A stretch of 64,000 nt of DNA, taken from positions 8 to 64,007 of the forward strand of contig PBPL01000101.1 of the NCBI GenBank assembly GCA_002724675.1, in the 5' to 3' direction. Below, piece by piece: positions 21,082 to 62,031 of this stretch. A program made the position numbers and the translations under genes. The stretch's first letter is position 1; every line of letters starts with the position of its first letter. The DNA comes from Deltaproteobacteria bacterium (lineage in GTDB: Bacteria; Myxococcota_A; UBA796; UBA9615). The notes under the pieces were generated by a model. The model did not search any database and was not told where the DNA came from. It saw only the letters and a program-made list of their open reading frames with translations.

Positions 21082-22857
21082 ATGACAACGACCAGCATCA
21101 GCGTTCAGGCCGCCCAGGATCATCCTCTACCCGACCACGCTCCCGGCGATCGCATCGGGGGCCACTACGAGGTAATTGAGAAGCTGGGAGACGGCATGCT
21201 AGGGGCTGTCTACAAGGTCAAGCACGAGGCCACAGGCGAGGTCGTGGCTCTGAAGCTCATCCGGCCTCAGCTCGTGGCCGAGGACATCGACATCAATCGA
21301 TTCAACCACGAGTTGCAGATTGCCAAGGGATTCGACCACCCGGGCATCGTCAAGTTGCTGGACAGTGGGGAGGCGGATGGAACGCTCTACCTCACGTCCG
21401 AGTTGATCGAGGGCGAGTCTCTTCGAGATCTGATCACCAAGTACCGCTCCCGCGGTGAAGACCTACCGCTCGACGAGGTTCACGAGATACTGGACGAGGT
21501 TCTCGAAGCCCTCAAGCATGCGCACGGGACCACCATCCACCGGGATCTCAAGCCAGAGAACATCCTGCTCTATGACGTCCCCGACAAGGACGGACAGTTG
21601 ATGCGTAAGGTCAAGGTCAGCGACTTTGCGATCGCCAACGTGGTCAGCCCCACGATCTTCGCGACTTCGTATCTCAATCGAGAGAACGCCTTCTATCTCG
21701 CACCCGAGATGTCCGAATTCCGGGACAAGACAGCCCCCAACAGCGATCTGTACTCGGTGGGCGCCATCCTCTACGAGATGCTGTTGGGCTATCCCCCCAC
21801 TGGCGTCTACGAGATGCCCTCGGACATCCGCAGTGGCGAGGTGCCCAACAGTATCGATGACTTTGTGGAGATCGCCCTCGCTCCCAACCCCCAAGATCGC
21901 TTCCAGCGATGCGAAGACATGCAGAGCGCTCTGGAGCAAGCGTTCTCCGAGGTGTATTTGGTCTCTGAGACCAACATGAGGCGCACGCTCCTCCTGCTCT
22001 TGCTGTTGGCGGCAGCACTCATGGCGGCCGGCGTTTACTTTCAGCAGAGCAAGCCGACCCCTGAAGAGATCCTGGCCAGTGACTACCGGCATCGGGACGC
22101 CATGCGGGAACGGATCAAGATGGAGAACGGCCAACCCGAAAAGGCCCCCGCAATCGACCCGAACAATCCCGACCACGCGAAGTACGCGGGCATGCAGTAC
22201 GTGCCTGCAGGTCAGTTCATACGCGGCAAGTTCCGATTCGCCTCGGAAGAACTCACGGCGATGCAAGGCAAGGGCGAGCTAGACGAGCAAGTCGTACAGG
22301 TGGATGGCTTTTGGATCGATCAGTACGAGATGCACTACGCCCCCAAGGAAGTGCTGGAGGAAGACTCTGAAGCACTCAGTGAAGAGAAAACCCGCTGGAA
22401 CGAGAACACCGCCTACGGCCCGGTCCGCGAGGTCACTTGGACTGAGGCCAAGGCCGAGTGCGAGCGGCTCTCCAAGAGGCTCTGCACGGAAGATGAGTGG
22501 GAGAAGGCCTGCAAGGGGCCCAGCAATTCCATCTATGCCTATGGCGACGACCCGGCGATCACCGTCTACAACCCGCAGGGCAGCGAGATCACCAGTGAGG
22601 GCATCTGCCTGGAGTCGGGCTTCAAGCGTGGGGACAAGGTCAACAGTCTCCCGGCCTGCAAGAGTGCCTACGGCGTCTCTGGAATGTCAGGAGGCGTCGC
22701 TGAGTGGACTTCCACCCAGACCCCGGACGGCAAGAATTACATCGTCAAGCCTGGGCCTCGCGGTGGAGACGCACTCAACACCCGGTGTTCAGGACGCAAT
22801 GACCGACCACCCACGTTCTCTCAGATCCACGTGGGCGCTCGCTGCTGCGCAGACTGA
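21082..22857 (+). CDS. Ser/Thr protein kinase with a TM helix and a C-terminal FGE-sulfatase (SUMF1-like) domain
   Basis: Hanks kinase motifs are present (GxGxxG-like, VALK, HRDLKPENILL, DFAIA). It has a poly-Leu TM helix. The C-terminus has …VQVDGFWIDQYEMHYAP…REVTWTEAKAECERL…, typical of the FGE family. Confidence 0.8.
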   Translation: MTTTSISVQAAQDHPLPDHAPGDRIGGHYEVIEKLGDGMLGAVYKVKHEATGEVVALKLIRPQLVAEDIDINRFNHELQIAKGFDHPGIVKLLDSGEADGTLYLTSELIEGESLRDLITKYRSRGEDLPLDEVHEILDEVLEALKHAHGTTIHRDLKPENILLYDVPDKDGQLMRKVKVSDFAIANVVSPTIFATSYLNRENAFYLAPEMSEFRDKTAPNSDLYSVGAILYEMLLGYPPTGVYEMPSDIRSGEVPNSIDDFVEIALAPNPQDRFQRCEDMQSALEQAFSEVYLVSETNMRRTLLLLLLLAAALMAAGVYFQQSKPTPEEILASDYRHRDAMRERIKMENGQPEKAPAIDPNNPDHAKYAGMQYVPAGQFIRGKFRFASEELTAMQGKGELDEQVVQVDGFWIDQYEMHYAPKEVLEEDSEALSEEKTRWNENTAYGPVREVTWTEAKAECERLSKRLCTEDEWEKACKGPSNSIYAYGDDPAITVYNPQGSEITSEGICLESGFKRGDKVNSLPACKSAYGVSGMSGGVAEWTSTQTPDGKNYIVKPGPRGGDALNTRCSGRNDRPPTFSQIHVGARCCAD

Positions 22858-49529: not shown

Positions 49530-50462
49530 TTACTCGAAGCCAATCAGCCAGATCGCCTGTCCACCGTACTGCCCAGACAGGTCCGTGCCCACGTAGGGGT
49601 TGGTCTCGGTGTTCTTGAAGAACTCCCAGTATCCGTACCACGAAGAGCCGGGGCCCGCCGCAGCCGAGACCTGGTTGATACCAATCTCGTTGGACAGCGT
49701 TCCAGGGGTGTTGTTCACGAAACCAGCGTGGGTGAACTCAAGCCCGTACTCAGACAGGGTCTGCTCGATCTCGGCAGCGCTGTAGCCACCGTCCACCGTC
49801 AGCTCCATGCCCTGATCGCTCATCGTGGTGACATCCACCAAGCCGAGGCTGAGGAAGTCGCCCATGCCACCATCGGTGATGGGAGTCAGCAGCGAGGGGC
49901 CGAAGTTGGCGCCGGCGAGGTCCAGCTCGGCGACATCGCAGTCGTCCGGGTTGGTCGCAGGATCGGAGATGTCGGTGGCCGACGTGTGATCGAACTCAAT
50001 GGAGCCCGTGCAGTTGTTGCAGCCTTCACCAGCCAGGATGCCGGGGCCGAAGGTGGCAGAGCCAGCGATCTGAATCCACTGCGTGCAGTTCAGGATCTGG
50101 GTTGCCTCGTTGTACTCAGCCCAGTAGTTGACACCGAACACGGCAGAGATGTCGGTAGAGGAGTCGTCCACGGGGACCGCTTCCATCTCGATGGAGAAGC
50201 TGATGGCAGCCAGCGCGAACTCAGCCGCGGTGTCGTCATCATCATCGTCGTCATCATCATCGTCGTCGCCGAGGTTGTTACCACCGTCGTCGTCGTCGTC
50301 ACCAGGAATGTTGTTGCCGTCGTTGTCAGTGTCACCGTCGATGGACGAGTCGCCACCATTGGCACCATCTGTGCGGGCATCACAGCCCATTCCAACCAAC
50401 GCAACACCCACAACCAGCGCCAACATATAGCTACTGAACATCTTCACGATAACCTTGAACAT
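49530..50462 (-). CDS. Acidic lipoprotein with a poly-Asp tract
   Basis: The start is at M48 (MFKVIVKMFSSYMLALVVGVALVGMGC), with GGAGGGA upstream. It has a lipobox. It contains DDDDDGGNNLGDDDDDDDDDDDD. The C-terminal domain is of unknown function. Confidence 0.6.
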   Translation of the reverse strand: MFKVIVKMFSSYMLALVVGVALVGMGCDARTDGANGGDSSIDGDTDNDGNNIPGDDDDDGGNNLGDDDDDDDDDDDDTAAEFALAAISFSIEMEAVPVDDSSTDISAVFGVNYWAEYNEATQILNCTQWIQIAGSATFGPGILAGEGCNNCTGSIEFDHTSATDISDPATNPDDCDVAELDLAGANFGPSLLTPITDGGMGDFLSLGLVDVTTMSDQGMELTVDGGYSAAEIEQTLSEYGLEFTHAGFVNNTPGTLSNEIGINQVSAAAGPGSSWYGYWEFFKNTETNPYVGTDLSGQYGGQAIWLIGFE

Positions 50463-50704
50463 TCGGGTCTCCCTCCACCTCGCATATACCGACCAGACCG
50501 GTTGCAGACACCCTGCAACACGAACCATCCAGCCCAGCTGAGTGCGAGCGGCGAGCGGTATGTACCCGAGAGCCGCGCGAAAGAAAAGTCCTTTTTCGAA
50601 CAAGCCCTACGCGAAACGGCAACAGGCATCGAAATCGGAAAAAACAAGAAGAGACGCAACTTCAAGACAAGGTCGACGCTGTAACCGATAGCGGCAACCG
50701 CAGC

Positions 50705-51991
50705 TCAGTCAACGCGAACCTGCCTGGGAGGCTCCTTCGACGCCGAGACCGCTCTGACCCGAGCCGTATCCAGCTGACCTCGACCAAACTCCGAGTCGAT
50801 CTCGCGTGCCAGCGAGAGCACGAAGCGAAGAGTTTGCTCGAGAGCGCGGGGCTCTACCGAGTCCAATCGGTCCTGGTGCGTGTGTAAGACCTCCGCAGCC
50901 CTGCCACGAACCAACGTAGTGAGCGTCACCGCCCGGTAGCCGGCCTCCGTCACCGGACCCGCATCGGTTCGCCCCACAAGGGCGACCTCGCCGACCCCAT
51001 CGAACTCATCGGACTGAGCGAGACGCTCCGCCAGAGCAGGCAGGCTTGGTCTATATGGCAAGCGGTCCCAACGCCCTTCTGAGCTGACGAAGTGCAGCTC
51101 CCCACGGCCGACGTCGTCTAGGTTGACGAAGAAGGTCGCGCGCCGGTCCAGAAGATGAGCGAACTGGCGCACGAACGCCTTCATGCCGCCCGAGTCCGCT
51201 TCACGCGCGCCGGTCGCGAGGACCCACAGCTCGCAGTGCTCCAGTGGTTCATTCACCAGATGCTCCGCGGCCACTAGAGCCACCGCGAGGCCAGAGCCGT
51301 TGTCGATGGCCCCAGCGGTGGGGACAGAGCGCCACCAATCGATGGCAATGAGAAGCGTGGCGACGTGGATCCAGGCCGCCATCAGCAGCGCCGCAAGCGC
51401 GACGGGAGAGGGTTCAGGAAGCGCCAACGCCAAGATGGAGGCGACAAGTTGAGTAGCACCACCGACGAGTACAATGGTGCCAGGGTGCAGGGGCACACCA
51501 CCGATTAATTCATAGTGAGCCAGTCGCTTGACCCAGGGACTGAAGAGCGTGGACGCACCGGCCACGTCCGCATGCGCCACGAGCACCACCCGACCCCGAC
51601 TGCCCGGCTGCCGAAGGCGCGCGACCATATTGCCCGTCAGCTGCTTCATGAGAAGCCAGCGCACCAGACGCGGGCGGCCGCGAAGCTCACCCCAAAAGGA
51701 CAGCAAGACCAACGAAGTCAGCAACACAGGCCCCAACCCGTTGCTCAGAAGGGACCAGAGCAGGGCCACGAGCAGAAGGGCCGAGTGTGTCCCCAGCAGG
51801 ACAGAGGTCTGAGGAGCGCACACCGCCCCCTCAACGACCGTGTCCATGCCCAGCCGGTCTAGACGCCCGGCAAGCGCAGCCTGGGCCATGCGCTCACCTT
51901 GAGAACCCGCCAGTCGACCAGGCAACTCGGTGACAACCCCGATGAATTCCTTCATGCGTTGGACCGTCGATGTTTGATGCGAGTGTGACAT
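50705..51991 (-). CDS. M28-family metallopeptidase, membrane-anchored
   Basis: It has N-terminal TM helices, the …AIDNGSG… motif and other M28-like metal-ligand regions. Confidence 0.65.
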   Translation of the reverse strand: MSHSHQTSTVQRMKEFIGVVTELPGRLAGSQGERMAQAALAGRLDRLGMDTVVEGAVCAPQTSVLLGTHSALLLVALLWSLLSNGLGPVLLTSLVLLSFWGELRGRPRLVRWLLMKQLTGNMVARLRQPGSRGRVVLVAHADVAGASTLFSPWVKRLAHYELIGGVPLHPGTIVLVGGATQLVASILALALPEPSPVALAALLMAAWIHVATLLIAIDWWRSVPTAGAIDNGSGLAVALVAAEHLVNEPLEHCELWVLATGAREADSGGMKAFVRQFAHLLDRRATFFVNLDDVGRGELHFVSSEGRWDRLPYRPSLPALAERLAQSDEFDGVGEVALVGRTDAGPVTEAGYRAVTLTTLVRGRAAEVLHTHQDRLDSVEPRALEQTLRFVLSLAREIDSEFGRGQLDTARVRAVSASKEPPRQVRVD

Positions 51992-52073
51992 TGTCGAGAA
52001 GAGTCTAAACCGTTCGCTATACTCTCAAACCCCAGGGGTCGGTCTTCGGCCCATTACCTCGGTTAGGACCTCG

Positions 52074-53498
52074 ATGAACCTCGTTGTCGACGAGGTTGTT
52101 TCGCTGCACAGCGACAACCTCTCTCATGTATTCCATGTACCCACATCATCGCTGTATGCGATGGACTCCGAAACCATGTCTATCCTCGAGGGTGCTCGTG
52201 ATGGACTGCATACCGATCAGAGCCTGCAGAAACTGACGGCGGACTCAGGTCTCGACCCGGCCGAGGTCGAGGACATCATCGACAATTTGGTGAAGTTGCG
52301 TCTCCTGGTCCCACCAGGCGAGACCGGCAACCGAGGCCCACTTGCTGACCGGCCGCAGAGTGGCCGGAGCATGGGCAATCTCGTCCTCCACGTGGCACAC
52401 ACCTGCAATCTGGGTTGCGGCTACTGCTATGCGGAGCAAGGCCTGTACAAGGGCAAAGCCACCCTCATGAACGAAGAGCGAGCCCATGAATATGTGGACT
52501 GGCTATTCGACCAGTGTGATCCGGAGACCAAGTCTCTCGGCATCACTTTCTTCGGGGGCGAGCCACTGCTGAATCTGAAAGTCATGAAGTCCGCCGCAGC
52601 CCATGCTCGAGAACGAGCGGACACGGACAACAAGTCTGTGCGGTTCTCCGTGACGACCAACGGCACCCTAGTCACCCCCGAGATCGTCGACTTTCTAGCC
52701 GCCATCGACTGTGTCGTCACAGTGAGTCTGGACGGCATCGGCAAGACCAACGATCGCCTGCGCCCGTTCCACTCGGGCCGCGGGTCCTACGACCTCGTCC
52801 TGGACCGCATCCAACCGCTCCTCGAACGGGGCAAGGTGGCTGCCCGTGTCACCGTCACCCGGCAGAACCTCGATGTCGTAGACACCGTCACGACGCTCCT
52901 CGAACGAGGCTTCGCTGAGGTGGGGTGCTCGCCAGTCGATGCGAAGAATCCTGCCTACGACCTGCGAGGGGAAGACTACGAAGTGCTGCTCGATGGCTTC
53001 GGCACACTCTCCCGACGCTACATCGACGAGGCCGTGCAGGGTCGTAAGTACGGCTTCTCTAACATCGCCAACATCATCAAGGCGGTGCACCAAGGGCACA
53101 ACAAGGACTACCCGTGCGGCGCGGGGCTCCAGATGGTTGCGGGTGCCCCCAACGGTGAGATGAGCCTATGCCACCGATTCGTTGGTGAGCCGGACTACGT
53201 CCTTGGCAACGTCAAAGAGGGTGGAATCGATAGCCATCGTCGGCTTCAGATCCTCGAGGACATCCAGCTGTCCGAGCGATCCGACTGCTCCAGTTGCTGG
53301 GCCCGTTACATCTGCTCCGGCGGATGCCACCACGTCAACTTCCTGTTCGAGGGAGACCCCAGCCGCACTTACCTGACCCACTGTGACTACCTCCGAGCTT
53401 GGTATCGCATGGGCCTCGAAGCCTACGCTGAGATCATGTCACGCAACCCCGAGTTCGTCGGGGAGTTCATCGACCCCGGTTTTCTGTGCAATCAGTAA
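52074..53498 (+). CDS. Radical SAM / SPASM-domain peptide-modifying enzyme with an N-terminal RRE-like extension (QhpD-like thioether-forming maturase)
   Basis: It has the CNLGCGYC radical-SAM motif and a C-terminal SPASM region (CGAG…C…CSSCWARYICSGGCHH). The first ~90 aa read LYAMDSETMSILEG…DPAEVEDIIDNLVKLRLL, which resembles a PqqD-type RiPP recognition element (RRE). Confidence 0.85.
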   Translation: MNLVVDEVVSLHSDNLSHVFHVPTSSLYAMDSETMSILEGARDGLHTDQSLQKLTADSGLDPAEVEDIIDNLVKLRLLVPPGETGNRGPLADRPQSGRSMGNLVLHVAHTCNLGCGYCYAEQGLYKGKATLMNEERAHEYVDWLFDQCDPETKSLGITFFGGEPLLNLKVMKSAAAHARERADTDNKSVRFSVTTNGTLVTPEIVDFLAAIDCVVTVSLDGIGKTNDRLRPFHSGRGSYDLVLDRIQPLLERGKVAARVTVTRQNLDVVDTVTTLLERGFAEVGCSPVDAKNPAYDLRGEDYEVLLDGFGTLSRRYIDEAVQGRKYGFSNIANIIKAVHQGHNKDYPCGAGLQMVAGAPNGEMSLCHRFVGEPDYVLGNVKEGGIDSHRRLQILEDIQLSERSDCSSCWARYICSGGCHHVNFLFEGDPSRTYLTHCDYLRAWYRMGLEAYAEIMSRNPEFVGEFIDPGFLCNQ

Positions 53499-53535
53499 CG
53501 AGAGCCTAAGATTGGCGCGAAAAGGAACCCAGCCC

Positions 53536-53832
53536 ATGAGCCGAATCAAGCCTCTGAACATTAAGGCAAGAGCTGTCGAAGCGAGCACAGACCGCGACGT
53601 GCGGGGCTACGCATTCGGCGACTGCTGCGCATCCTTCGCGCCGGGTTGGGAGGTGGGCACCCAAGACAACGCCGACCCCTGCCCGTGGAAGAGCGACCTC
53701 AGCCTCTGCTGGGGCACCTGCTACTGGATGGGTCAGGTGCCCGACTACATCTCGTACGGGGAGTGGCTCGACACCTGCGGCAACATTCAGAACGACTGGC
53801 GCAATCTCTGTACCATTCCGGACAACGGGTGA
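53536..53832 (+). CDS. Cys-rich precursor peptide (98 aa), resembling the QhpC gamma subunit of quinohemoprotein amine dehydrogenase
   Basis: The ATG lies 10 nt after AAAGGA. The 28-aa leader is MSRIKPLNIKARAVEASTDRDVRGYAFG. The core has 7 Cys, LCWGTCYW (a Cys-x5-Trp motif as in CTQ), PGWEV, QVPD and DWRNL. The stop lies 5 nt before the next start. Confidence 0.75.
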   Translation: MSRIKPLNIKARAVEASTDRDVRGYAFGDCCASFAPGWEVGTQDNADPCPWKSDLSLCWGTCYWMGQVPDYISYGEWLDTCGNIQNDWRNLCTIPDNG

Positions 53833-53837
53833 CGCTC

Positions 53838-54908
53838 ATGCTCCAGCGCACGAACTCCTATATCTGCACTCTGGCCGCTCTCGTCGCGGCTGCCGTCTGG
53901 CTGCTCGCCCTGCCTCAGCACACAGAGGCGGCGGGCGCTCGCACTGCATGGGTATCTAGCAACCACATCCAGGTCATTGACCTGGACACGGCTCGGGTCA
54001 TTGGCCGGCTGCCGCTCTCCGAGTTCATCCACGACATGGACTTCAGCGTGGACGGCAACCGCGTGTACGTAGGCAGCAGCAAGGGGCTGCGTGTGGCCGA
54101 TGCCAACGAGCTCCGGTTTGTGCAGCAGGTGTCCACGAGCATGACCAAGGCCGTAGCGGTCTCCAAAGACGGCAGTCGCGTCGCAGCGATTCATCCTGGG
54201 GACCGAGAGGCGACACAGGCAGCCCGGAAAGCTGGCCTTCCCCTCCCCCCCGCCAAGATCACGATCTACTCGACGCTGGACATGAAGGAACAGAGTTCCT
54301 GGCACGTGCACGCCATGACATTCGATGTCCTGTTCGCGCCATCGAACGATCGGGTCTACGTGTTGGTACCCCCCGAGGGCATGGTCTATGTCCACGACTT
54401 GAGTGGGGCAGTTCTCGACACCATTCAGCTCGTACCGAGGAGCCCCGAGGGTTCCCACCAGGGAGCAATGCTGACCTGGATGGCGCTCTCGCCCGATGGC
54501 CGATCGCTGGTGGTCCCCGGCACAACCGCAGACCGATCGTTCGTAGCAGAGGTCGACCTGGGCAACAGACGACCCCTGGATGAACGCGTGGTCCACCAAG
54601 ATCTGGGACACAACCGGAGGATCCAAGGGCTGGCTTGGGACGATGACGGCAGTGGTGTTTACGTCACTGCAGTGAACTCCATGGTCAAGTTCAATGGTCT
54701 CGGTCTTCCCATCGCCTGGGAATCCATGCCGCTCAACTACGTCGACATCGAGCCCATCCCAGGCACCAACGAGAACGTCCTGGTGGCGCCCATCTTCTCC
54801 AAGTCCAACAAGAGCGGGGGGGTCGCCATCTTGGGCGAAAACGGCGAGTTCCTGAGAACGGTGGAGTTGCCCGACATGAGCCCCTACTTCGTGGCTGTCC
54901 GACCCTGA
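53838..54908 (+). CDS. Secreted beta-propeller protein (YVTN-type repeats), QhpB beta-subunit-like
   Basis: It has a signal peptide (MLQRTNSYICTLAALVAAAVWLLALPQHTEAAG). It also has repeated …DGxRVYV… blades, which fits a 7-bladed propeller of ~326 aa mature length. Confidence 0.7.
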   Translation: MLQRTNSYICTLAALVAAAVWLLALPQHTEAAGARTAWVSSNHIQVIDLDTARVIGRLPLSEFIHDMDFSVDGNRVYVGSSKGLRVADANELRFVQQVSTSMTKAVAVSKDGSRVAAIHPGDREATQAARKAGLPLPPAKITIYSTLDMKEQSSWHVHAMTFDVLFAPSNDRVYVLVPPEGMVYVHDLSGAVLDTIQLVPRSPEGSHQGAMLTWMALSPDGRSLVVPGTTADRSFVAEVDLGNRRPLDERVVHQDLGHNRRIQGLAWDDDGSGVYVTAVNSMVKFNGLGLPIAWESMPLNYVDIEPIPGTNENVLVAPIFSKSNKSGGVAILGENGEFLRTVELPDMSPYFVAVRP

Positions 54909-54918
54909 CCACACTCTG

Positions 54919-54940
54919 CCTACACGCGCCCGACCGGGCG
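54919..54940 (+). promoter_or_regulatory. GC-rich inverted repeat CGCGCCCG-AC-CGGGCGCG immediately 3' of the beta-propeller gene. Candidate intra-operon attenuator.
   Basis: It forms a perfect 8-bp stem. The coordinates are approximate to +/-2 nt. Confidence 0.3.
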
Positions 54941-55072
54941 CGGCTGACGCAACTTGAGCAAGCCTCGGACCTTCGTCGGTCGGAGGCTGCCTGGCTATCC
55001 AGTCTGCCCGACTACAGCCGGCTCTATTTTGGGGTCGAGTTCTGCGAGCACCTGCTTCCCAGCGCGGACGAC

Positions 55073-55900
55073 GTGGAGGCCGCTTGCGACTTCTGCAACC
55101 GGCGTCAATGGAAGCTAACGCTGCTGACACCCTACGTAACCGACTGGGGGCTCGAGAAGATCGACCCACTCCTCCAGGCCCTAGACACCATGGCGCCCCA
55201 TGGCACCGAGGTGGTCGTCAACGACTGGGGAGTACTCCGCCAGGTAGCCAACCGCTCCAACGCAGACCTCTTGGTTGTACTGGGCCGAGGGTTGAACCGG
55301 ATGTTCCGCGACCCGAGAGTTCCCGATGTAGGTCCAGAACATCTGGGGGGAGACGCTCCACCGAGCGCTTGGCGTAGCGCGAGCCACCAGAGTCAGGGTT
55401 TCCGAACCATGCTCCGCTCGGCAGGCATCCAACGGATCGAAACGGACATGCCGATGCAAGGTATGCAGGACCTGGACCCCGACGAACAAGACCTGAAGCT
55501 AAGTGTTCACCTGCCCTATGGAATGGTGGCCAGCGGCCGCATCTGCATGATGAGCGCCCTTGGGCAGTCGGCTTCAGTGCGATTCCCCCCACCTCGCGCC
55601 TGCACTGCGCCCTGCCACGACTACACTTTGGAGCTTCGCGCGCCCTGGACGCGTCGAGCGGTTGGAGCAGGCCGGCTACCCCTGGTTGCAGAGGACAGCT
55701 TTCTGCCTCTAGACCACGTGCTCAATCGCCGTCGTAACGCGTTTCCAGCCCACGAGAATGACGACGCACCGAGGTTCATCCAGAAAGGCAACACCCACTT
55801 CTACTGCCTGGACGAGGAGAAGGTGGACAGTGCGCTGGACTGGGTCCACCGCAACCCCACAGCAGACCGCATCGTGGTAGCACCTGACGTGCCCATGTAG
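55073..55900 (+). CDS. U32-family protein, UbiV-like. The true start is probably upstream, near 55000.
   Basis: …DFCNRRQWK… aligns to the UbiV AVCSKRR Cys-ligand region. …VVVNDWGVLRQVANR… aligns to the UbiV LLEANDLGAVQLAHE region. The in-frame upstream sequence encodes a conserved-looking LYFGVEFCEHLLP, but there is no ATG/GTG/TTG until 55073. Confidence 0.7.
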   Translation: MEAACDFCNRRQWKLTLLTPYVTDWGLEKIDPLLQALDTMAPHGTEVVVNDWGVLRQVANRSNADLLVVLGRGLNRMFRDPRVPDVGPEHLGGDAPPSAWRSASHQSQGFRTMLRSAGIQRIETDMPMQGMQDLDPDEQDLKLSVHLPYGMVASGRICMMSALGQSASVRFPPPRACTAPCHDYTLELRAPWTRRAVGAGRLPLVAEDSFLPLDHVLNRRRNAFPAHENDDAPRFIQKGNTHFYCLDEEKVDSALDWVHRNPTADRIVVAPDVPM

Positions 55901-55928
55901 GCTTGCGAGCCCTAGGACCCAGAGCCCC

Positions 55929-57035
55929 GTGCAAATCCTTTGCCCCGTCAACAGCCCCGAAGAGGTCGCTCCGCTTGTGGATGCAGGGGCGGACGAGTTC
56001 TACTGCGGCCTGTTCCCCACAGAGTGGTACGAAAAGTGGGGTCGTGGGAGCTGGCCTAACCGGCGCGGACCAGGCCCGGCCAACATCAGCAAGATTGACG
56101 ACCTGGCGCGGCTGGCAGACAGCGTGCACACCGCAGGCTCCGGTGGGCCCAACCAGCGGCGAGTTCCACTGTTCGTTGCGCTAAACCAACAGTTCTACCC
56201 AGACGACCAGGCGGACTTCCTCCTGGGGATCGCTCAGGACCTCCAGAGCCGCTCCGCTGTGGACGCCTTCATAGTGAGTGACCCCGGCTTCATGGGCCTC
56301 TTGAAGACTGAGATTCCGGAGGCGCGAGTCTTCTCCTCCACGGTGTCTGTTGCAACCAATGCTCAGGCGGTCCGGTTTCTTGCGGACTTGGGATGCTCCC
56401 GAGTCATCCTGTCCCGTCATCTGCACCTGGCCGAGGTCGAGTCGCTGCAACAATCCGTCCCCGATGTGGAGCTGGAGGTCTTCCTGCTCAACGACAACTG
56501 TTATTTCGAGGAAGGCTTCTGCAGCACGACACACACCATGCCGGGCTTCGGTGTCTACTGCATGACACCGTGGGAGCTGAGAGTCACCCGCGATGATCAG
56601 GGGGGGCAGGGTCTATCCGATCCCGAGGAGCGAGCTCGCTGGGACTTTCTCATCGACGAGCACCGACGCTTCCTGGGCAATCTGTCGCACCGGGGTTTTG
56701 GGGGCGGTCGCGCAGCAGTTCCGCTCGGACCATGCGGACTCTGCGCGATCCCCAAGCTCATGGACCTGGGCATCCACAGCGGCAAGATCGTGGGTAGGGA
56801 GGCCAGCCTGTATCGAAAGATCCGCTCTGTTCAGTCCGTCCGATACGTACGGGACAGCTATCGAGAAACCGGAGATGCTCAAGAGGCAAAGAAGAAGGCA
56901 GTAGAGCTTCGTGCTGACCCACGGGGTTGCAGTAGCGGCATGTCCTGTTACTACCGTAGCGCCCGAGACCGCGACCTCATCCCCCTGCCCTCCCGGAGCA
57001 CCAAGAAGCCGACTCGAAACGCGACCAAGCCATGA
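55929..57035 (+). CDS. U32-family protein, UbiU-like
   Basis: MQILCPVNSPEEVAPLVDAGADEFYCGL matches the UbiU/RlhA N-terminus (MELLCPAGN…GADAVYIGL). There are Cys clusters (NDNCYFEEGFC…, PLGPCGLC). Confidence 0.75.
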   Translation: MQILCPVNSPEEVAPLVDAGADEFYCGLFPTEWYEKWGRGSWPNRRGPGPANISKIDDLARLADSVHTAGSGGPNQRRVPLFVALNQQFYPDDQADFLLGIAQDLQSRSAVDAFIVSDPGFMGLLKTEIPEARVFSSTVSVATNAQAVRFLADLGCSRVILSRHLHLAEVESLQQSVPDVELEVFLLNDNCYFEEGFCSTTHTMPGFGVYCMTPWELRVTRDDQGGQGLSDPEERARWDFLIDEHRRFLGNLSHRGFGGGRAAVPLGPCGLCAIPKLMDLGIHSGKIVGREASLYRKIRSVQSVRYVRDSYRETGDAQEAKKKAVELRADPRGCSSGMSCYYRSARDRDLIPLPSRSTKKPTRNATKP

Positions 57036-58927
57036 CCTCAAAGGGGTCCCCTCCCCCCTCTCCAGCCTTTGTGCCCGAGGCCATACGGCCGGACTCGGTG
57101 CGCCCAGCCGACACGGAGGTGTCGGAGCACACGAAGGTCCCCTGGAAGCGCGTCTTCAGCTACCTACTGCCCTACTGGAAGGCCGAGGTCCTTCTGGTGC
57201 TCGGTATGGCGATCGGTATTGGGCTCTCCTTGGTCTACCCGTTCCTGCTGCGAGAAATCGTCGACGATGTGGTGGGCCCCGGCGCCTCGGCTGCGACCGA
57301 TCGATTGTTACCCCTTGCCGCCCTCATCCTGGCCGCCACGGCCGGCGGGGTCGTGCTCTCTGCCGCTGCCGCCTGGCTCCAGACCTGGGTCACAGCACAC
57401 GTCCTCGTTGATCTCCGCTTGGAGTTGTTCCAGCACCTTCAGTCATTGGGCCCTGCTTTCTTTGCCCGCAAGCGACTGGGGGACGTCCTGTCTCGCATGG
57501 GAGGAGACCTCGCCGAGCTGCAACAGGTGGCCACCGGAACTCTCATCAATGTCATTGGGTCGGTCGTCACACTCGTGGGAGTCATCACGGCGCTCACCTT
57601 CCTCCAGCCCCTATTGCTTGCCGTAGGCGCGGCGTTCATCCCCATCGCTATCGGCTTACTGGTGCTGCTTCGGCCCATCATCCGGCGCCTGTCTTTGAGG
57701 ATTCGAGAGCGCAACGCTGACATCTCCCATCAGATGTTGGAGAGCCTAACCGGCCTGCGCACGGTCCTGGCCCACGGGCTTGCCGACCGAGAAGCGAAGC
57801 GGTTCGAGGGCAACAACTTGGCGTTGATCCGAGCCGTTCTGCTCTTCCGCCTGTGGAACTCGGGATCAGCCGGCGCCTTCCAGATCCTCGTCACGGCGAA
57901 CCTCCTGGCTGTCCTCGTCGTTGGTGTCTGGCTGATGCGAACGACTGCGATGACCCCAGGCGACCTCGTCGCGTTCCTCCTGTTCCAACAGCGACTCTAC
58001 GGTCCGCTGCAGGGGCTGGCGGGCACTTATGTCAATCTGCAGCGGGCAGCAGCGTCAGTGGCGCGAGTCTTCGAGTTGCGCGACGCCAAGCCCCTGGAGG
58101 CTGCCGACCCGGCCCTGTCCCTCGACGAACCCTTCCAGGGACGCGTCGAGTTCGACAAGGTTTCGTTCCAATACGCTCCCGGACGACGGGTTCTGACCGA
58201 CCTGACGATGCGAGTGGATCCCGGAGAGACCGTGTGCCTGGTCGGCCCCTCAGGAGTGGGCAAGACGACCGTCCTCGAGCTCATGTTTCGATTCGTCGAC
58301 CCCGATGAGGGACGCGTTCTACTGGACGGCATCGATCTTCGAGAACTGGACCTCGACAGCGTTCTGCCCCAGGTCGCGTTGGTAGGCCAAGAGCCCGCGC
58401 TGTTCGATGGCACTCTACGCGACAACCTCCGATGGCTCCGGCCGGACGCGCCAGAGGCCACCATGAACGAAGTGGTCGAGCAAGTGGGCTTGTCGGAGTT
58501 CGTCCGCAGCCTGCCCCAGGGGCTGGAGACTCCTCTCGGCGACCGCGGCATTCGCCTGTCCTCTGGGCAGCGCCAGCGCATCGGGCTCGCCCGCGCGCTT
58601 CTCCGAGAACCCGTCCTCTTGGTGCTGGACGAAGTCACCTCGGCCCTGGACTGGGAGAGTGACCGGCTCGTCGTCGAAGCACTCCAAGCTCGGCGAGCCT
58701 CGGGCTGCACCACCCTGATCATCTCCCACCGCCTGCATCTTGCCGTCGATGCAGACCGAGTCGTCGTACTAGAAGACGGTCACGTGGCGACCACAGGCAC
58801 CCACCTCACCCTGCTCGACCAGGGCGGACTGTACCGCAGACTTTGGGACTTGCAGCGAGGCGCGGCAGAGGCCAGGAGGTCCCCCAGCAGCGGCAGAACA
58901 CACCCCACCGAGGACGGCTCGGCGTGA
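57032..58927 (+). CDS. ABC transporter, fused permease/ATPase exporter (QhpF-like)
   Basis: It has 6 TM helices, Walker A GPSGVGKTT, the signature LSSGQRQRIGLARAL and Walker B LLVLDEVTSALD. There is an ATGA overlap with the U32 gene. Confidence 0.85.
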   Translation: MTSKGSPPPSPAFVPEAIRPDSVRPADTEVSEHTKVPWKRVFSYLLPYWKAEVLLVLGMAIGIGLSLVYPFLLREIVDDVVGPGASAATDRLLPLAALILAATAGGVVLSAAAAWLQTWVTAHVLVDLRLELFQHLQSLGPAFFARKRLGDVLSRMGGDLAELQQVATGTLINVIGSVVTLVGVITALTFLQPLLLAVGAAFIPIAIGLLVLLRPIIRRLSLRIRERNADISHQMLESLTGLRTVLAHGLADREAKRFEGNNLALIRAVLLFRLWNSGSAGAFQILVTANLLAVLVVGVWLMRTTAMTPGDLVAFLLFQQRLYGPLQGLAGTYVNLQRAAASVARVFELRDAKPLEAADPALSLDEPFQGRVEFDKVSFQYAPGRRVLTDLTMRVDPGETVCLVGPSGVGKTTVLELMFRFVDPDEGRVLLDGIDLRELDLDSVLPQVALVGQEPALFDGTLRDNLRWLRPDAPEATMNEVVEQVGLSEFVRSLPQGLETPLGDRGIRLSSGQRQRIGLARALLREPVLLVLDEVTSALDWESDRLVVEALQARRASGCTTLIISHRLHLAVDADRVVVLEDGHVATTGTHLTLLDQGGLYRRLWDLQRGAAEARRSPSSGRTHPTEDGSA

Positions 58928-59658
58928 ACAAGTCCACTACAGACCGAGGTCCTCTGGTCGCTGTCGTGGACAGTGGCGTGGCAGCCGGACACCCGCACTT
59001 GGAAGGCCTACAGTTGCGTTCCTTCTCCCTCGAGGGAGCGGGATCACCACTGGACCGACGGCCAGAGGCATCGGACCGGACAGGGCATGGCACTGCGTGT
59101 GTTGCCGCCCTATACCGGGCGAATCCCCGGGTGGAGGTCCTAGCAATCCGTCTCTTGGATGAAGAGTTGAGAACAACCGCCGAGGCTGTGGCCGAGGCGA
59201 TCCGCGTCGCTGCCGACGAAGGAGCGAAGGTCATCAACCTCAGCCTGGGCTCGGGCAGGGCCGAATCGAGGTCCCTACTGGAGGAGGCCGTGCTGTACGC
59301 CAGGGAGCGGTCAGCACACTGTGTGGCTGCCGCCCACCCAAAGGGACGGCAGCTTTGGCCAGCCGACCTGCCCAGCGTGATCTCAGCGATTAGTCACCGC
59401 AGTTGCCCTCTCAGCGACCTGTATCGTGTGGAGGGGCCACTGCCCCGGTTTCTCGCGCACGGCTATCCACGGCCCATCGAGGGCCGGCCCCCCACCGCCA
59501 ATCTGTACGGCCCATCGTTTGCCGCCATTCACTTGTCAGCAAAGGTTGCGGAGATTCTGACCAGAGACTCCCAGTTGGCATTCTCCGACATCGTCACCTG
59601 CCTGGAAGAGAGCTGTTCCGGCTCCTGGAATGAAACCAGCACTCACCCTAGGTCTTGA
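58924..59658 (+). CDS. Small intracellular subtilisin-like serine peptidase (S8), QhpE-like leader peptidase candidate
   Basis: The GTG start overlaps the ABC stop (GTGA). It has the D (VVDSGV), H (HGTACVA) and S (GPSFAAIHLS) catalytic motifs. There is no signal peptide. It is ~244 aa. Confidence 0.75.
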   Translation: MNKSTTDRGPLVAVVDSGVAAGHPHLEGLQLRSFSLEGAGSPLDRRPEASDRTGHGTACVAALYRANPRVEVLAIRLLDEELRTTAEAVAEAIRVAADEGAKVINLSLGSGRAESRSLLEEAVLYARERSAHCVAAAHPKGRQLWPADLPSVISAISHRSCPLSDLYRVEGPLPRFLAHGYPRPIEGRPPTANLYGPSFAAIHLSAKVAEILTRDSQLAFSDIVTCLEESCSGSWNETSTHPRS

Positions 59659-59683
59659 CCGACCCCTCCCAGCCCGATAAACG

Positions 59684-60562
59684 GTGTACATGTCTCCCGC
59701 ACCTGACGAACCGAGCTTCGAAGACGCTGAAGAGGCGTTCGAGCGTGGCGACGTCGAGACTGCCCTGGCGATCTGTGAGGGCTACCTCGGCGAAGACGAG
59801 TCCAAGGCACCCGTCGAGGCCCTCTACTTAGCTGCAGAGTGTCTCCTGGAGCTCCAGGAGGTCACCGAAGCGACCCACATGATCGACCTGGCCTTGAACG
59901 AGCACCCAGACGACGCCGTGCTGGTACACACGAAAGCCATTTGCTGCTTCGAGCAAGCCAAGCTCGAAGATGCTCGGAAGGGCTTCGAGAGAGCCGCGAA
60001 CCTGGACGACCAACTGGGGGAGCCGCTGTTCTACCTAGGCATCCTGACCGAACGAGACGGTGACTTCGGCGCAGCAGACCGCCTCTTTGAGCACGGTGTT
60101 CGCTTGGACCCCGAGAACCTGTCCCTGCCGGTCGATTGGCCGGCCGACAAGGTTCGCCAGATCTTCGATGAGGTGGTCGAAGAGATGCCAGATCCTTTTG
60201 GCATGTGGCTGGCTGGTCTGCGCGTGGACGTGGCCGACCTTCCCGACGACGCTGCTCTGGCTGCCGCAGAGGGACCCATCTCCCCACTCGTTCACTGTCT
60301 CTTTGACGGGCCAGCACCAAGCCCTCCGGCGGAGAAGACGGACCCCGACGAGTGGCTTACGACCCACCCGAGCCGCGTCCGACTGTTTCGACGCAACCTG
60401 GGCAAGAGCGCCCACGACGAGTACGAGCTACACCGAGAGATACTCGAAGCTCTCCTCTGGGAATCCATGGAGTTCCTGGGCCTCGACGAGGGACACCTGG
60501 CCAAGCTCGGTATCCTCGACGACGAGGACGACGAGGCGCTGCTCCCGGGCAAGCCCCACTAG
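59684..60562 (+). CDS. TPR-like protein with a C-terminal acidic / zincin-like (DUF1025-like) region
   Basis: It has an N-terminal TPR-like helical repeat, and a C-terminal …HDEYELHREILEALLWESMEFLGLDEGHLAKLGILDDEDDE. The assignment is weak. Confidence 0.4.
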   Translation: MYMSPAPDEPSFEDAEEAFERGDVETALAICEGYLGEDESKAPVEALYLAAECLLELQEVTEATHMIDLALNEHPDDAVLVHTKAICCFEQAKLEDARKGFERAANLDDQLGEPLFYLGILTERDGDFGAADRLFEHGVRLDPENLSLPVDWPADKVRQIFDEVVEEMPDPFGMWLAGLRVDVADLPDDAALAAAEGPISPLVHCLFDGPAPSPPAEKTDPDEWLTTHPSRVRLFRRNLGKSAHDEYELHREILEALLWESMEFLGLDEGHLAKLGILDDEDDEALLPGKPH

Positions 60563-60609
60563 TCTCAGATGGGCAGACCATCTGAGTCGCGAACAGGCTG
60601 GGTAGGTCG

Positions 60610-62031
60610 TCAGCCGCCGCGAGTCAGTATGATGGTGACTTCGTAGTATCGATTGGCAGCACTCGCTTGCTCATCCACATCAGACACCACGACCTGCCAC
60701 GTACCCGAGGAGAGCTCCTGGGAGACCACAGGGGACTCAGCTGCCATGTCCCAGGGCAAGGGGTCGCCGGCCTCACCTTCGGGGTTGATCAGGTGGACTT
60801 GCGGCGCCGTAGTCTCGCCATGGAGGGTGGATGCGAACGAAACATCGAGGACATCGCCTGACTCAGCTTCCAGGGAGTAGCGATCCTGGTCACCCGCACT
60901 GCCAATCCGGCCCCAGTACGTAGCCTGAGCCACGCTCTCACCCGAGCTAAAGGACAGGCCGAGCGCCATTGCCGTCTCCGTGGTCTCGTTGGGTTCCACC
61001 TCGACCGCCGGCATGTCGGCTGGATTGTTCTTCGCCGCGTGCAGGAAGTACCAGTGATCAAAGCCCCCGGAGTCACCAGCGTCCAGGACTTCCAACATGT
61101 AGAAGCCCGTCTCTAGGACGGGTATCCAGGCCCTGGTCTCTGTCTCCCAGTTCATCCCATCGTAGGTCTGGATGAGGCTCTCACCGTCTTCCAGGTAGAC
61201 ATTGACCCGAGTAGTTCCGGCACTCCCGCTGTTGGGGAACCCGTACAGGCGGAGAACCTCCGAGCTGATCACGGGGACGGAAATCCAGTCGCGGTCTTTA
61301 GACGGGGCAAGGGTGCCACCAGCCGTGTAGTTCACCGCGTACTCGTCCACCCCCCAGACCACAGCATCTTCCAGTTGATCGTTGGGCTCGCCAACGTGCA
61401 TGGGATTGGACTCCGAGCCCAACTGAGAAAAGCTAAGCGTGTACTGGCGATCGTCCCCGGAGCCCGGGACGACAACGCTGGGGTCGTTGGCCCAGCTGCG
61501 CCGATCTTCCAGGCTGAAGTAATAGAGATCTGTAGACGGGACCGCCGAGTAAAAGCGTGAATTGGGCTCCACCGAAGGGACGCGGCTGTAGTTGTCGTTG
61601 TAGCCGATCTCGTCCCCATTCCCGTCGTAGTACACAATCACCGTATCCAGGGACTCGGAGTCCTCAGCATCCGCCGTGACTAGGAACAAGTCCCCCACTG
61701 TTCCGTAGAAACGAAACCAATCCACATCATCTGCTGGGGCGATGTGCAGCTGGACCGTATCCCCGTACTCAATTAGCTGCGCCTCATCGGGAAAATTGTT
61801 GCGATCCCCCTCGACGCACTGGCCAAGTTCATCGCAGATCTCGAGCCCGGACTCGTAGTCACAGTCCAGATCCTCGTCACAAACAGCCTCTGGCTCACCT
61901 CCTCCTGGAGGAGCTACAGGCGCGTCGTCATCCTCCTCAGCCTCATCCCCACAGCCCCAGAGGCCCAGCCCTAGAGCGAGCGTCAGCAACAACCAGCGAG
62001 TACGTTGGCGAGAGAGGGAATGAAGTGGCAT
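60610..62031 (-). CDS. Secreted lipoprotein with three PPC (pre-peptidase C-terminal)-like domains
   Basis: The start is at M17. It has the lipobox LGLWGC and an acidic linker. It has repeated …DVDWFRF…, …DRDWISV… and …DQDRYSLEA… modules, typical of PPC/DVUA domains. Confidence 0.55.
   Translation of the reverse strand: MPLHSLSRQRTRWLLLTLALGLGLWGCGDEAEEDDDAPVAPPGGGEPEAVCDEDLDCDYESGLEICDELGQCVEGDRNNFPDEAQLIEYGDTVQLHIAPADDVDWFRFYGTVGDLFLVTADAEDSESLDTVIVYYDGNGDEIGYNDNYSRVPSVEPNSRFYSAVPSTDLYYFSLEDRRSWANDPSVVVPGSGDDRQYTLSFSQLGSESNPMHVGEPNDQLEDAVVWGVDEYAVNYTAGGTLAPSKDRDWISVPVISSEVLRLYGFPNSGSAGTTRVNVYLEDGESLIQTYDGMNWETETRAWIPVLETGFYMLEVLDAGDSGGFDHWYFLHAAKNNPADMPAVEVEPNETTETAMALGLSFSSGESVAQATYWGRIGSAGDQDRYSLEAESGDVLDVSFASTLHGETTAPQVHLINPEGEAGDPLPWDMAAESPVVSQELSSGTWQVVVSDVDEQASAANRYYEVTIILTRGG

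Follow-up and report, generated by a model that had tools for sequence, protein, structure and literature searches.

A qhp-like operon with a U32 protein pair and no cytochrome alpha subunit: a candidate oxygen-independent route to a tryptophan-derived quinone

Quinohemoprotein amine dehydrogenase (QHNDH), encoded by qhpADCBEFGR in Paracoccus denitrificans/pantotrophus and Pseudomonas putida (PDB 1JJU and 1JMX), is the reference system for the operon described here, which lies on a 64-kb stretch of contig PBPL01000101.1 (assembly GCA_002724675.1, Deltaproteobacteria bacterium); this whole stretch is referred to below as the window. We know of no characterised route to a tryptophan-derived quinone that does without an oxidising maturation enzyme, be it MauG for tryptophan tryptophylquinone (TTQ) or LodB/GoxB or QhpG for cysteine tryptophylquinone (CTQ). 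In QHNDH, the monooxygenase QhpG dihydroxylates the tryptophan of QhpC, with both oxygens derived from O2 (PMC7876137), and a 2025 review names only QhpG and QhpA for CTQ biogenesis in this enzyme. Oxygen-independent hydroxylation has been tied to the U32 iron-sulfur proteins UbiU/V, TrhP and RlhA, with prephenate as the oxygen donor (PMC10990095).

The window operon is a tightly packed block of eight co-directional genes on the + strand (positions 52074-60562) that specify QhpD-, QhpC-, QhpB-, QhpF- and QhpE-like proteins, two adjacent U32 proteins and a TPR protein (Table 1). Judging from sequence and gene context, we favour the view that it encodes a periplasmic two-subunit quinoprotein related to QHNDH and matured by a six-step pathway. 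The U32 pair is most likely an oxygen-independent replacement for QhpG, because such pairs are embedded in qhp operons, alternate with QhpG and occasionally co-occur with it. As a more tentative proposal, the pair may act as a peptidyl-tryptophan dihydroxylase that builds CTQ without O2, and what it yields in the marine lineage may be a gamma-beta quinoprotein free of haem, with an external acceptor and a working mode like that of methylamine dehydrogenase (MADH).

With QHNDH, the operon shares the four cysteines, three acidic acceptors and CTQ tryptophan of the gamma subunit, a QhpD-type radical S-adenosylmethionine (SAM) enzyme, a propeller gene directly after qhpC, a QhpE-type S8 protease, a QhpF-type exporter and the operon logic as a whole. 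It differs in having no dihaem alpha subunit, QhpG or AraC-type QhpR, in its added U32 pair, TPR/zincin-like gene and three additional peptide cysteines, in altered peptide motifs and in a very divergent propeller. The encoded system is thus predicted to work like QHNDH in peptide maturation and export but lacks two of the defining features of QHNDH, QhpA and QhpG. It is probably a cut-down QHNDH relative that has lost the cytochrome subunit, and its proposed U32 route to the quinone is described in no paper that we found.

The predicted combination of a propeller, a small cross-linked quinone subunit and an external acceptor is also reminiscent of MADH. However, the cofactor of MADH and aromatic amine dehydrogenase is TTQ, whereas here CTQ is expected, with thioethers made by a radical SAM enzyme instead of six disulfides and with no MauG-like dihaem maturase; the small subunits have no detectable homology, and the resemblance is one of working mode, not of family membership. 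LodA and GoxA are likewise CTQ enzymes with no haem subunit, but each is one large polypeptide whose maturation depends on a flavoprotein (LodB/GoxB) and O2, with no radical SAM enzyme, thioether cage or propeller (PMC7876137). Ranthipeptide/SCIFF systems (PapB and ScfB) have homologous radical SAM/SPASM enzymes that make Cys-to-Asp/Glu thioethers, and the same logic of leader, protease and exporter, but the precursor in the window is a QhpC homologue and not a SCIFF or Pap peptide. The conserved partner propeller and the CTQ residues point to an enzyme subunit rather than a ranthipeptide or SCIFF product.

U32 pairs and QhpG in qhp operons

Related loci were collected by scanning one genome per GTDB species with an alignment of the small U32 protein (198 species) and keeping the best 80 loci, referred to as the U32-anchored sample. 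The open reading frames (ORFs) of each locus, taken from up to 10 kb around the anchor (64 kb for the window), were called in six frames and scored with phmmer, jackhmmer and hmmsearch. The taxon names used here are the record titles of metagenome-assembled genomes (MAGs), and some are clearly unreliable. In 45 of the 80 loci, the U32 pair stood beside QhpD-like, QhpC-like, ABC exporter and S8 protease genes, mostly in the order found in the window. At least 27 of these 45 loci had a strong match to a true dihaem QhpA, and among them were complete qhpA-D-C-B-F-E operons; in two QhpA-bearing loci scored with curated models, QhpA reached 510 and 309 bits (TIGR03908) and the propellers 92-102 bits on the QhpB model. 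The pair was placed between B and F in some clusters and after E or before A in others, yet the linkage persisted. Hosts of such clusters were Acidobacteriota, Desulfobacterota, Firmicutes-labelled MAGs, Gemmatimonadota, Glassbacteria and Myxococcota-labelled MAGs, and by record title included Blastocatellia, Terriglobia, Clostridia-labelled MAGs, Desulforhabdus sp. TSK (L051) and Syntrophobacteraceae; complete qhpA-D-C-B operons together with the pair were present in Desulforhabdus and in Syntrophobacteraceae MAGs.

QhpG was absent from every qhp locus of the U32-anchored sample by both phmmer and jackhmmer, and no conserved FAD enzyme was found among the neighbours in these loci; the same jackhmmer run did find QhpG in metagenome loci of a second, QhpD-anchored sample. 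This sample, of 80 loci collected around QhpD so that the choice would not be biased towards U32, was scored where at least 4 kb of flank upstream and 6 kb downstream were available. Among the loci with full flanks, QhpG occurred without the U32 pair in 18 and the U32 pair without QhpG in four, one locus had both, and four had neither, most of the latter also lacking E and F. The order in the U32-only loci was qhpA-D-C-B-F-E-U32-U32 or A-D-C-B-U32-U32-F-E. In the single operon with both (L121 in Table 1), the order was qhpG-A-D-C-B-F-E-U32-U32, an arrangement that recalls organisms keeping both aerobic and anaerobic ubiquinone hydroxylases. The same QhpC subtype with five cysteines was paired with QhpG in some loci and with U32 proteins in others, which rules out the fifth cysteine (the equivalent of Cys81 in the window peptide) as a marker of U32-dependent maturation. 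In a quick neighbour-joining tree of the large U32 protein, the qhp-linked pairs fell into one large clade with few unlinked members.

The two U32 proteins themselves look like a pair of the UbiU/UbiV type, each with a predicted iron-sulfur cluster held by four cysteines. UbiU-UbiV (yhbU/yhbV in E. coli; TrhP and RlhA are relatives) is an O2-independent, prephenate-dependent hydroxylase pair of anaerobic ubiquinone synthesis. As in that system, a larger and a smaller U32 gene lie side by side in the window, each product has four conserved cysteines at comparable positions, and in both cases the pair occupies the place that a flavin monooxygenase has in other genomes (compare UbiUV with UbiI/H/F). 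Unlike UbiU-UbiV, the window pair would act on a protein-bound tryptophan rather than on a prenylphenol or an RNA base; its small subunit is so divergent that Pfam and NCBIfam models miss it, and no UbiT-like carrier gene accompanies the pair. The large protein matched the U32 family (PF01136, 121 bits) and, in part, TrhP (82 bits) and UbiU (73 bits), and BLASTP aligned it with E. coli UbiU at 27% identity (E 1e-16). Its cysteines aligned with C169, C176 and C193 of UbiU, and a conserved GPCGLC motif followed further downstream.

The small U32 gene probably starts earlier than called. Its frame remains open upstream of the called GTG at 55073 (275 aa) as far back as CTG 54905, and its relatives, mostly 300-335 aa long, share a conserved N-terminal segment in which the cysteine of the motif YFGxEFC is invariant. 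The window has such a segment in frame 5' of GTG 55073, with no ATG, GTG or TTG before it, and public gene calls that start at GTG 55073 omit the first invariant cysteine. Candidate starts are CTG 54905, which overlaps the propeller stop codon (CTGA), CTG 54944 and CTG 55004. The nearest marine relatives (L012, L014 and L015) have no canonical start for this gene either. The long form was modelled by AlphaFold2 (AF2) with a mean confidence (pLDDT) of 88.9 and 95-98 at the N-terminus, and C47, C214, C233 and C237 were invariant in 77 sequences. Comparison of the small and large family profiles gave a 94.5% probability of homology (E 7.6e-8), so that both partners have the U32 (PF01136) fold. 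BLASTP of the small protein against E. coli UbiV returned nothing, and its profile had no meaningful match among PDB sequences, but among 1.84 billion proteins the same profile recovered at least 2261 representative clusters. One Blastocatellia genome has a Uma2-family putative endonuclease gene between its two U32 genes (L041).

The QhpC-like peptide and its maturation proteins

The proteins of the canonical Paracoccus pantotrophus operon (qhpG, A, D, C, B, E, F, R) were used as references against the window ORFs. The 98-aa peptide exceeded the cutoffs of both gamma-subunit models (NF037958, QH_gamma, 63 bits against 50; PF08992, 41 bits against 25) and aligned with 1jmx_G (E 4.6e-9) and 1jju_C with every key position conserved. 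A leader of ∼25 residues containing a KPLNxKA motif precedes a core of ∼70 residues, the size of a gamma subunit. The thioether pairs correspond, with 1JMX_G/1JJU_C numbering in parentheses, to Cys30 and Glu39 (Cys7 and Glu16), Cys49 and Asp54 (Cys27 and Asp33) and Cys62 and Asp70 (Cys41 and Asp49), and the CTQ pair corresponds to Cys58 (Cys37) and Trp64 (Trp43; codon 53725-53727). Nothing of the canonical set of four cysteines, three acidic acceptors and one CTQ tryptophan is thus missing from the peptide. Three of its seven cysteines (Cys31, Cys81 and Cys92) are additional to the canonical set. Across 24 family members, C30, E39, C49, D54, C58, C62, W64, D70 and C81 were invariant, C92 was nearly so and Cys31 was variable. 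The dN/dS ratio of the gene against seven related loci was 0.08-0.36, and the peptide is therefore under purifying selection. A peptide of identical sequence is encoded on several contigs from marine metagenomes, among them Tara Oceans assemblies and MAG GCA_003533695.1, where the genes are arranged in the same order.

Adjoining the peptide gene is that of the radical SAM enzyme, for which the QhpD model TIGR03906 was the best NCBIfam match (374 bits over positions 10-467 of 467, below the cutoff of 453); against Paracoccus QhpD it scored 259 bits. The CX3CX2C motif (CNLGCGYC) and the C-terminal SPASM cysteines are present. The PapB and SCIFF maturase models gave 296 bits (cutoff 340) and 265 bits (cutoff 425), respectively; with both scores under their cutoffs and under the QhpD score, and with a QhpC homologue as precursor, membership of the ranthipeptide/SCIFF group was rejected. 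The S8 protease matched the QhpE model NF049966 best (129 bits, short of the cutoff of 165) and aligned with Paracoccus QhpE at 30% identity (E 3e-14), including the catalytic Asp (VVDSG), His (GHGTA) and Ser (GPSFAA). The exporter is a fused permease and ATPase without a peptidase domain, scores 170 bits against Paracoccus QhpF and overlaps its neighbours by 4 nt on each side. At the level of homology, therefore, a QhpD-type maturase next to qhpC and both QhpE and QhpF are encoded.

The propeller gene comes after qhpC in 38 loci. Its product begins with a signal-like helix (signal peptide within the first ∼32 residues) and was modelled by AF2 as a seven-bladed propeller (pLDDT 92.8). Paracoccus QhpB had no match among all window ORFs, but the family profile of the propeller matched 1jju_B (E 6e-6), and a chain of similarity led through intermediate loci to proteins with 67-102 bits on the QhpB model. 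The link to QhpB is probably real but weak, drawn mainly from gene position (the gene consistently follows qhpC), together with fold and chained similarity rather than direct sequence similarity.

These results agree in part with an earlier note on the same DNA, which had been made from the sequence alone. All eight co-directional genes that it called are present at the coordinates it gave, and domain matches bear out the M28 peptidase and PPC-domain protein that it placed on the opposite strand at the flanks. Its assignments to QhpD, QhpC, QhpB, QhpF and QhpE hold as homology, with the reservation just made for QhpB. The note had also named two findings that would overturn it, and neither materialised: the peptide does align with QhpC at all key residues, and the radical SAM enzyme is not an anaerobic sulfatase maturase, given 97 bits on TIGR03942 (cutoff 349) as against 374 for QhpD and a block without a sulfatase.

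Probable loss of the cytochrome subunit

Neither Paracoccus QhpA nor QhpG had a match in the 64-kb window by phmmer or jackhmmer, and the AraC-type QhpR matched none of the window ORFs; the dihaem alpha subunit and the FAD monooxygenase that characterise QHNDH are thus both missing from the window. A six-frame scan of the whole 64 kb for CXXCH gave four motifs, all in short stop-to-stop frames of 53-150 codons, which rules out a cryptic haem subunit. Nor did eight related species-level loci (L007 and L012-L018) show a CXXCH-bearing gene or a QhpA-like ORF in the flanks of their U32 gene, which were covered for at most 10 kb in either direction (to the contig ends). Together with the window, these form an alpha-free group labelled Myxococcota, Deltaproteobacteria or, doubtfully, Rickettsiales.

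Three forms could be distinguished among the U32-type clusters, namely those with a full dihaem QhpA and a five-cysteine peptide, those with a haem-less mini-alpha and those with no alpha subunit. Mini-alpha is a secreted protein of ∼270-300 aa that is encoded just upstream of the qhp-like genes and is homologous to domain IV of QhpA. It was found in three Acidobacteriota loci, one Gemmatimonadota locus, Candidatus Glassbacteria and one further contig (Table 1), and in three loci it has a C-terminal FlgD_ig/type IX secretion domain. The peptides of these loci have seven or eight cysteines, and three of the six loci (those of Gemmatimonadota and Glassbacteria and the unassigned contig L010) have two tandem qhpC copies, which are nearly identical in L071 and differ, including around the CTQ loop, in L009 and L010. 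A search for a hidden alpha remnant with a mini-alpha/QhpA domain IV profile (jackhmmer and hmmsearch --max) found nothing in the window, L007, L013, L015 or L018. Alpha-free peptides form a distinct subtype, with DPCPW for LCQP, GQVPD for PAQVPD and the extra conserved Cys81 and Cys92, which fits a changed subunit interface; the altered motifs and Cys92 are common to alpha-free and mini-alpha peptides. Overall, mini-alpha seems to be a stage on the way to losing the cytochrome subunit, and alpha loss is lineage-specific.

In Desulfobacterota-type qhp clusters, we noted an extra ORF of ∼200 aa with three or four CXXCH motifs, which lies between the propeller and U32 genes in four loci and just after the S8 gene in a fifth (Table 1). 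It is probably a multihaem cytochrome c and could serve as the electron acceptor in sulfate reducers, which suggests that electron wiring differs between lineages.

The absence of QhpA and QhpG claimed in the earlier note for the block and its surroundings thus extends to the entire window, and the CXXCH check that it had proposed turned up no motif in a proper gene. Its idea of a stripped-down, gamma/beta-only quinoprotein survives in part: gamma/beta-only is still the best reading, but the absence of QhpG is not simple stripping, with the U32 pair likely standing in. Accordingly, the two U32 genes, which it had listed as extras, are likely a QhpG replacement that recurs in qhp operons and alternates with qhpG. 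Nor is the system a one-off, the U32-type qhp cluster being present in several phyla and only the loss of alpha being restricted to this lineage and a few others.

Proposed pathway, competing explanations and neighbouring genes

In the pathway that we propose, the leader would hold the 98-aa precursor on the QhpD-like radical SAM enzyme, which would form the thioethers Cys30-Glu39, Cys49-Asp54 and Cys62-Asp70. The U32 proteins, as a UbiU/UbiV-like heterodimer with one four-cysteine iron-sulfur cluster per subunit, would then hydroxylate Trp64 at two ring positions without O2, the oxygen donor probably being prephenate, as in anaerobic ubiquinone synthesis, and would so take over the job of QhpG. 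The QhpE-like subtilase would cut off the leader, and the QhpF-like ABC exporter would carry the cross-linked peptide to the periplasm, where it would bind the Sec-exported propeller and the Cys58-Trp64 quinone (CTQ) would be completed. In the absence of the cytochrome alpha subunit, the final oxidation and electron transfer during catalysis would need a partner encoded elsewhere.

If this is correct, a protein-derived quinone cofactor would for the first time have a route independent of oxygen, and the U32 hydroxylase family would gain its first protein substrate; we found no literature linking U32 proteins to QHNDH, QhpC/QhpD, tryptophylquinone or SPASM enzymes, in a search that left many subscription journals outside its coverage. 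Replacement of QhpG by a U32 pair would explain how strict anaerobes make the enzyme, and for U32 hydroxylases the system would offer a peptide substrate that is encoded by a gene and whose modification can be read cleanly by mass. The alpha-free form would mean that the cytochrome subunit is dispensable, which bears on the proposal that alpha haems oxidise CTQ. More than 2000 representative clusters make up the family that the small U32 partner defines, for which neither Pfam nor NCBIfam has a model.

Several points weigh against this interpretation. The U32-anchored sample contains U32 by construction, and in ∼33 loci the same U32 pair occurs without a nearby qhp cluster; the pair may therefore have other substrates, and no conserved partner genes were found for pairs outside qhp clusters. 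Several hosts (Blastocatellia and surface-ocean MAGs) are labelled as aerobes, for which O2-independence is not obviously needed. The small U32 protein matches no model in Pfam or NCBIfam, and its family aligned with single UbiV by hhalign only weakly (E 0.09), although the motifs were colinear. To our knowledge, hydroxylation by a U32 protein has yet to be seen in vitro, and no member of the family is known to have a protein as its substrate. The propeller scored 15 bits on the QhpB model TIGR03907 against a cutoff of 223, and a fold search was discarded as proof of its identity because QhpB ranked high, yet so did many unrelated propellers. One proposal assigns the completion of CTQ oxidation to the alpha haems, and without alpha there is no candidate enzyme for this step here; an alpha-free enzyme therefore needs another oxidant, and another acceptor in catalysis, neither of which is visible in the window. 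Beyond the 64 kb, the genome could still encode QhpA, QhpG or a redox partner. Finally, steps 1-6 of the pathway are drawn from homology and gene context, the direct results being gene identities, conserved residues and neighbourhood statistics.

A competing explanation is that the window has only part of a canonical QHNDH gene set, that other regions of the genome carry qhpA and qhpG (or a different hydroxylase) and that the U32 pair is unrelated or accessory. Only 64 kb of the genome is visible, qhpA lies 1.4-4.5 kb from the remaining genes in L041 and L063, and 4 of the 27 full-flank QhpD-anchored loci lack both QhpG and the U32 pair, several of them without E and F as well. In addition, the Blastocatellia locus L020 has the radical SAM, QhpC, U32 pair, ABC and S8 genes with no propeller or alpha gene nearby, and maturation genes are therefore separable from structural subunit genes. 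Nonetheless, we consider a split set unlikely: QhpA is missing not only from the eight related species-level loci (up to 10 kb either side of the U32 gene, to the contig ends) but also from the 52 kb upstream of the operon in the window, the alpha-free peptides are a subtype of their own (DPCPW, GQVPD, Cys81 and Cys92), the haem-less mini-alpha forms show stepwise loss, and the U32 genes, which sit inside the operon with reading frames that overlap, alternate with qhpG.

The absence of a redox subunit, together with the classic logic of a leader peptide, a radical SAM/SPASM enzyme, an S8 protease and an ABC exporter and the scores on the PapB and SCIFF maturase models (296 and 265 bits), could also be read as a ribosomally made and then post-translationally modified peptide (RiPP) of the ranthipeptide kind, exported as a cross-linked natural product, with the propeller as an unrelated secreted protein or receptor. 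This is improbable to a considerable degree, given that QhpD is the best match of the radical SAM enzyme, that there is no variation at the CTQ tryptophan, at its cysteine partner or at Asp54, that the core has the size of a gamma subunit and that in 38 loci qhpC is followed by the propeller gene, whose product is linked to QhpB by similarity. Lowest of all, by a shade, we rate the explanation in which the U32 proteins are peptidases that process or degrade the precursor or leader, tryptophan oxygenation being spontaneous or due to some periplasmic oxidant. The U32 family was indeed first named after collagenase-like peptidases, and the first tryptophan hydroxylation in MADH, LodA and GoxA is thought to be autocatalytic (PMC7876137). 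However, the operon already has a dedicated QhpE-like leader peptidase with an intact triad, both U32 proteins retain four-cysteine iron-sulfur motifs like those of UbiU and UbiV, the genetically studied members of the family (UbiU/V, TrhP and RlhA) act in O2-independent hydroxylation, and the near-exclusive alternation with QhpG favours a hydroxylase over a protease.

Table 1. Coordinates of the operon genes, neighbouring features and comparison loci
Feature	Locus	Coordinates	Strand	Basis or remark
qhpD-like radical SAM/SPASM enzyme, 474 aa	window	52074-53498	+	TIGR03906; Radical_SAM, Fer4_12, SPASM
qhpC-like gamma-subunit precursor, 98 aa	window	53536-53832	+	NF037958, PF08992
qhpB-like secreted 7-bladed beta-propeller, 356 aa	window	53838-54908	+	AF2 fold, position, chained similarity
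Small U32-like Fe-S protein, UbiV-like partner, ∼331 aa from CTG 54905	window	54905-55900	+	predicted
Large U32 protein, UbiU/TrhP-like, 368 aa	window	55929-57035	+	PF01136
qhpF-like ABC exporter, 631 aa	window	57032-58927	+	ABC_membrane plus ABC_tran; Paracoccus QhpF similarity
qhpE-like small subtilase, 244 aa, predicted leader peptidase	window	58924-59658	+	NF049966; Paracoccus QhpE alignment
TPR plus Zincin_1-like protein	window	59690-60562	+	TPR families plus PF06262
Promoter-like site	window	51994-52023	+	83-bp divergent intergenic region 5' of radical SAM gene; weak, not significant alone
M28 peptidase	window	50705-51955	-	
ORF with poly-aspartate run, 357 aa	window	49530-50603	-	no Pfam match
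Ser/Thr protein kinase fused to FGE-sulfatase domain	window	21082-22857	+	
Mini-alpha	L025	4379-5515		
Mini-alpha	L028	4623-5552		
Mini-alpha	L035	4421-5509		
Mini-alpha	L071	87-893		
Mini-alpha	L010	6682-7503		
Mini-alpha	L009	18-880		
Tandem qhpC-like genes	L009	844-1596		
Tandem qhpC-like genes	L010	7521-8187		
Tandem qhpC-like genes	L071	915-1583		
Multihaem ORF	L051	9008-9598		between propeller and U32 genes
Multihaem ORF	L085	9180-9797		between propeller and U32 genes
Multihaem ORF	L078	2540-3142		between propeller and U32 genes
Multihaem ORF	L084	5026-5634		between propeller and U32 genes
Multihaem ORF	L089	14336-14935		just after S8 gene
Operon with QhpG and U32 pair	L121	6907-17193		metagenome
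Cluster without propeller and alpha	L020	7822-14207		Blastocatellia
Uma2-family putative endonuclease	L041	10754-11386		Blastocatellia
FGE-sulfatase-domain gene	L032	14416-15588		3' of qhp-U32 cluster

Within the block, 4-nt overlaps join the genes at 57032 and 58924, and a third, at 54905, exists only if the small U32 gene starts at CTG; the most likely starts of the S8 and TPR genes are 58924 and 59690. A terminator scan found no terminator-like site on the + strand inside the block, and an Rfam scan of the block gave no match. The promoter-like site is the one sigma-70-like match in 51500-61000, where 1.2 are expected by chance, and its location fits the start of the operon. The TPR/Zincin_1 protein has no signal peptide and no HExxH motif, and its gene accompanies the cluster in only seven loci, all of the alpha-free marine or Myxococcota-labelled lineage; it is a lineage-specific accessory gene and may lie outside the core system.

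The M28 peptidase has hydrophobic stretches that suggest membrane spans, and its gene also lies divergently 5' of the radical SAM gene in L007, L013-L015 and L018, all of the alpha-free marine/Myxococcota-labelled lineage; this conserved neighbour could reflect plain synteny or a functional link. Between it and a 583-aa protein with CarboxypepD_reg repeats lies an ORF with a long poly-aspartate run (DDDDDDDDDDDD), which public assemblies call as a 310-aa gene. The rest of the 64-kb window is housekeeping in character (complex I genes, RelA/SpoT, Ffh, TruB and glycosyltransferases), with no obvious redox partner in it. Farther from the operon, one window gene specifies a fusion of a Ser/Thr protein kinase with an FGE-sulfatase (formylglycine-generating enzyme-like) domain, and a separate FGE-sulfatase-domain gene lies just 3' of the qhp-U32 cluster in five Blastocatellia- or Clostridia-labelled loci, for example L032.

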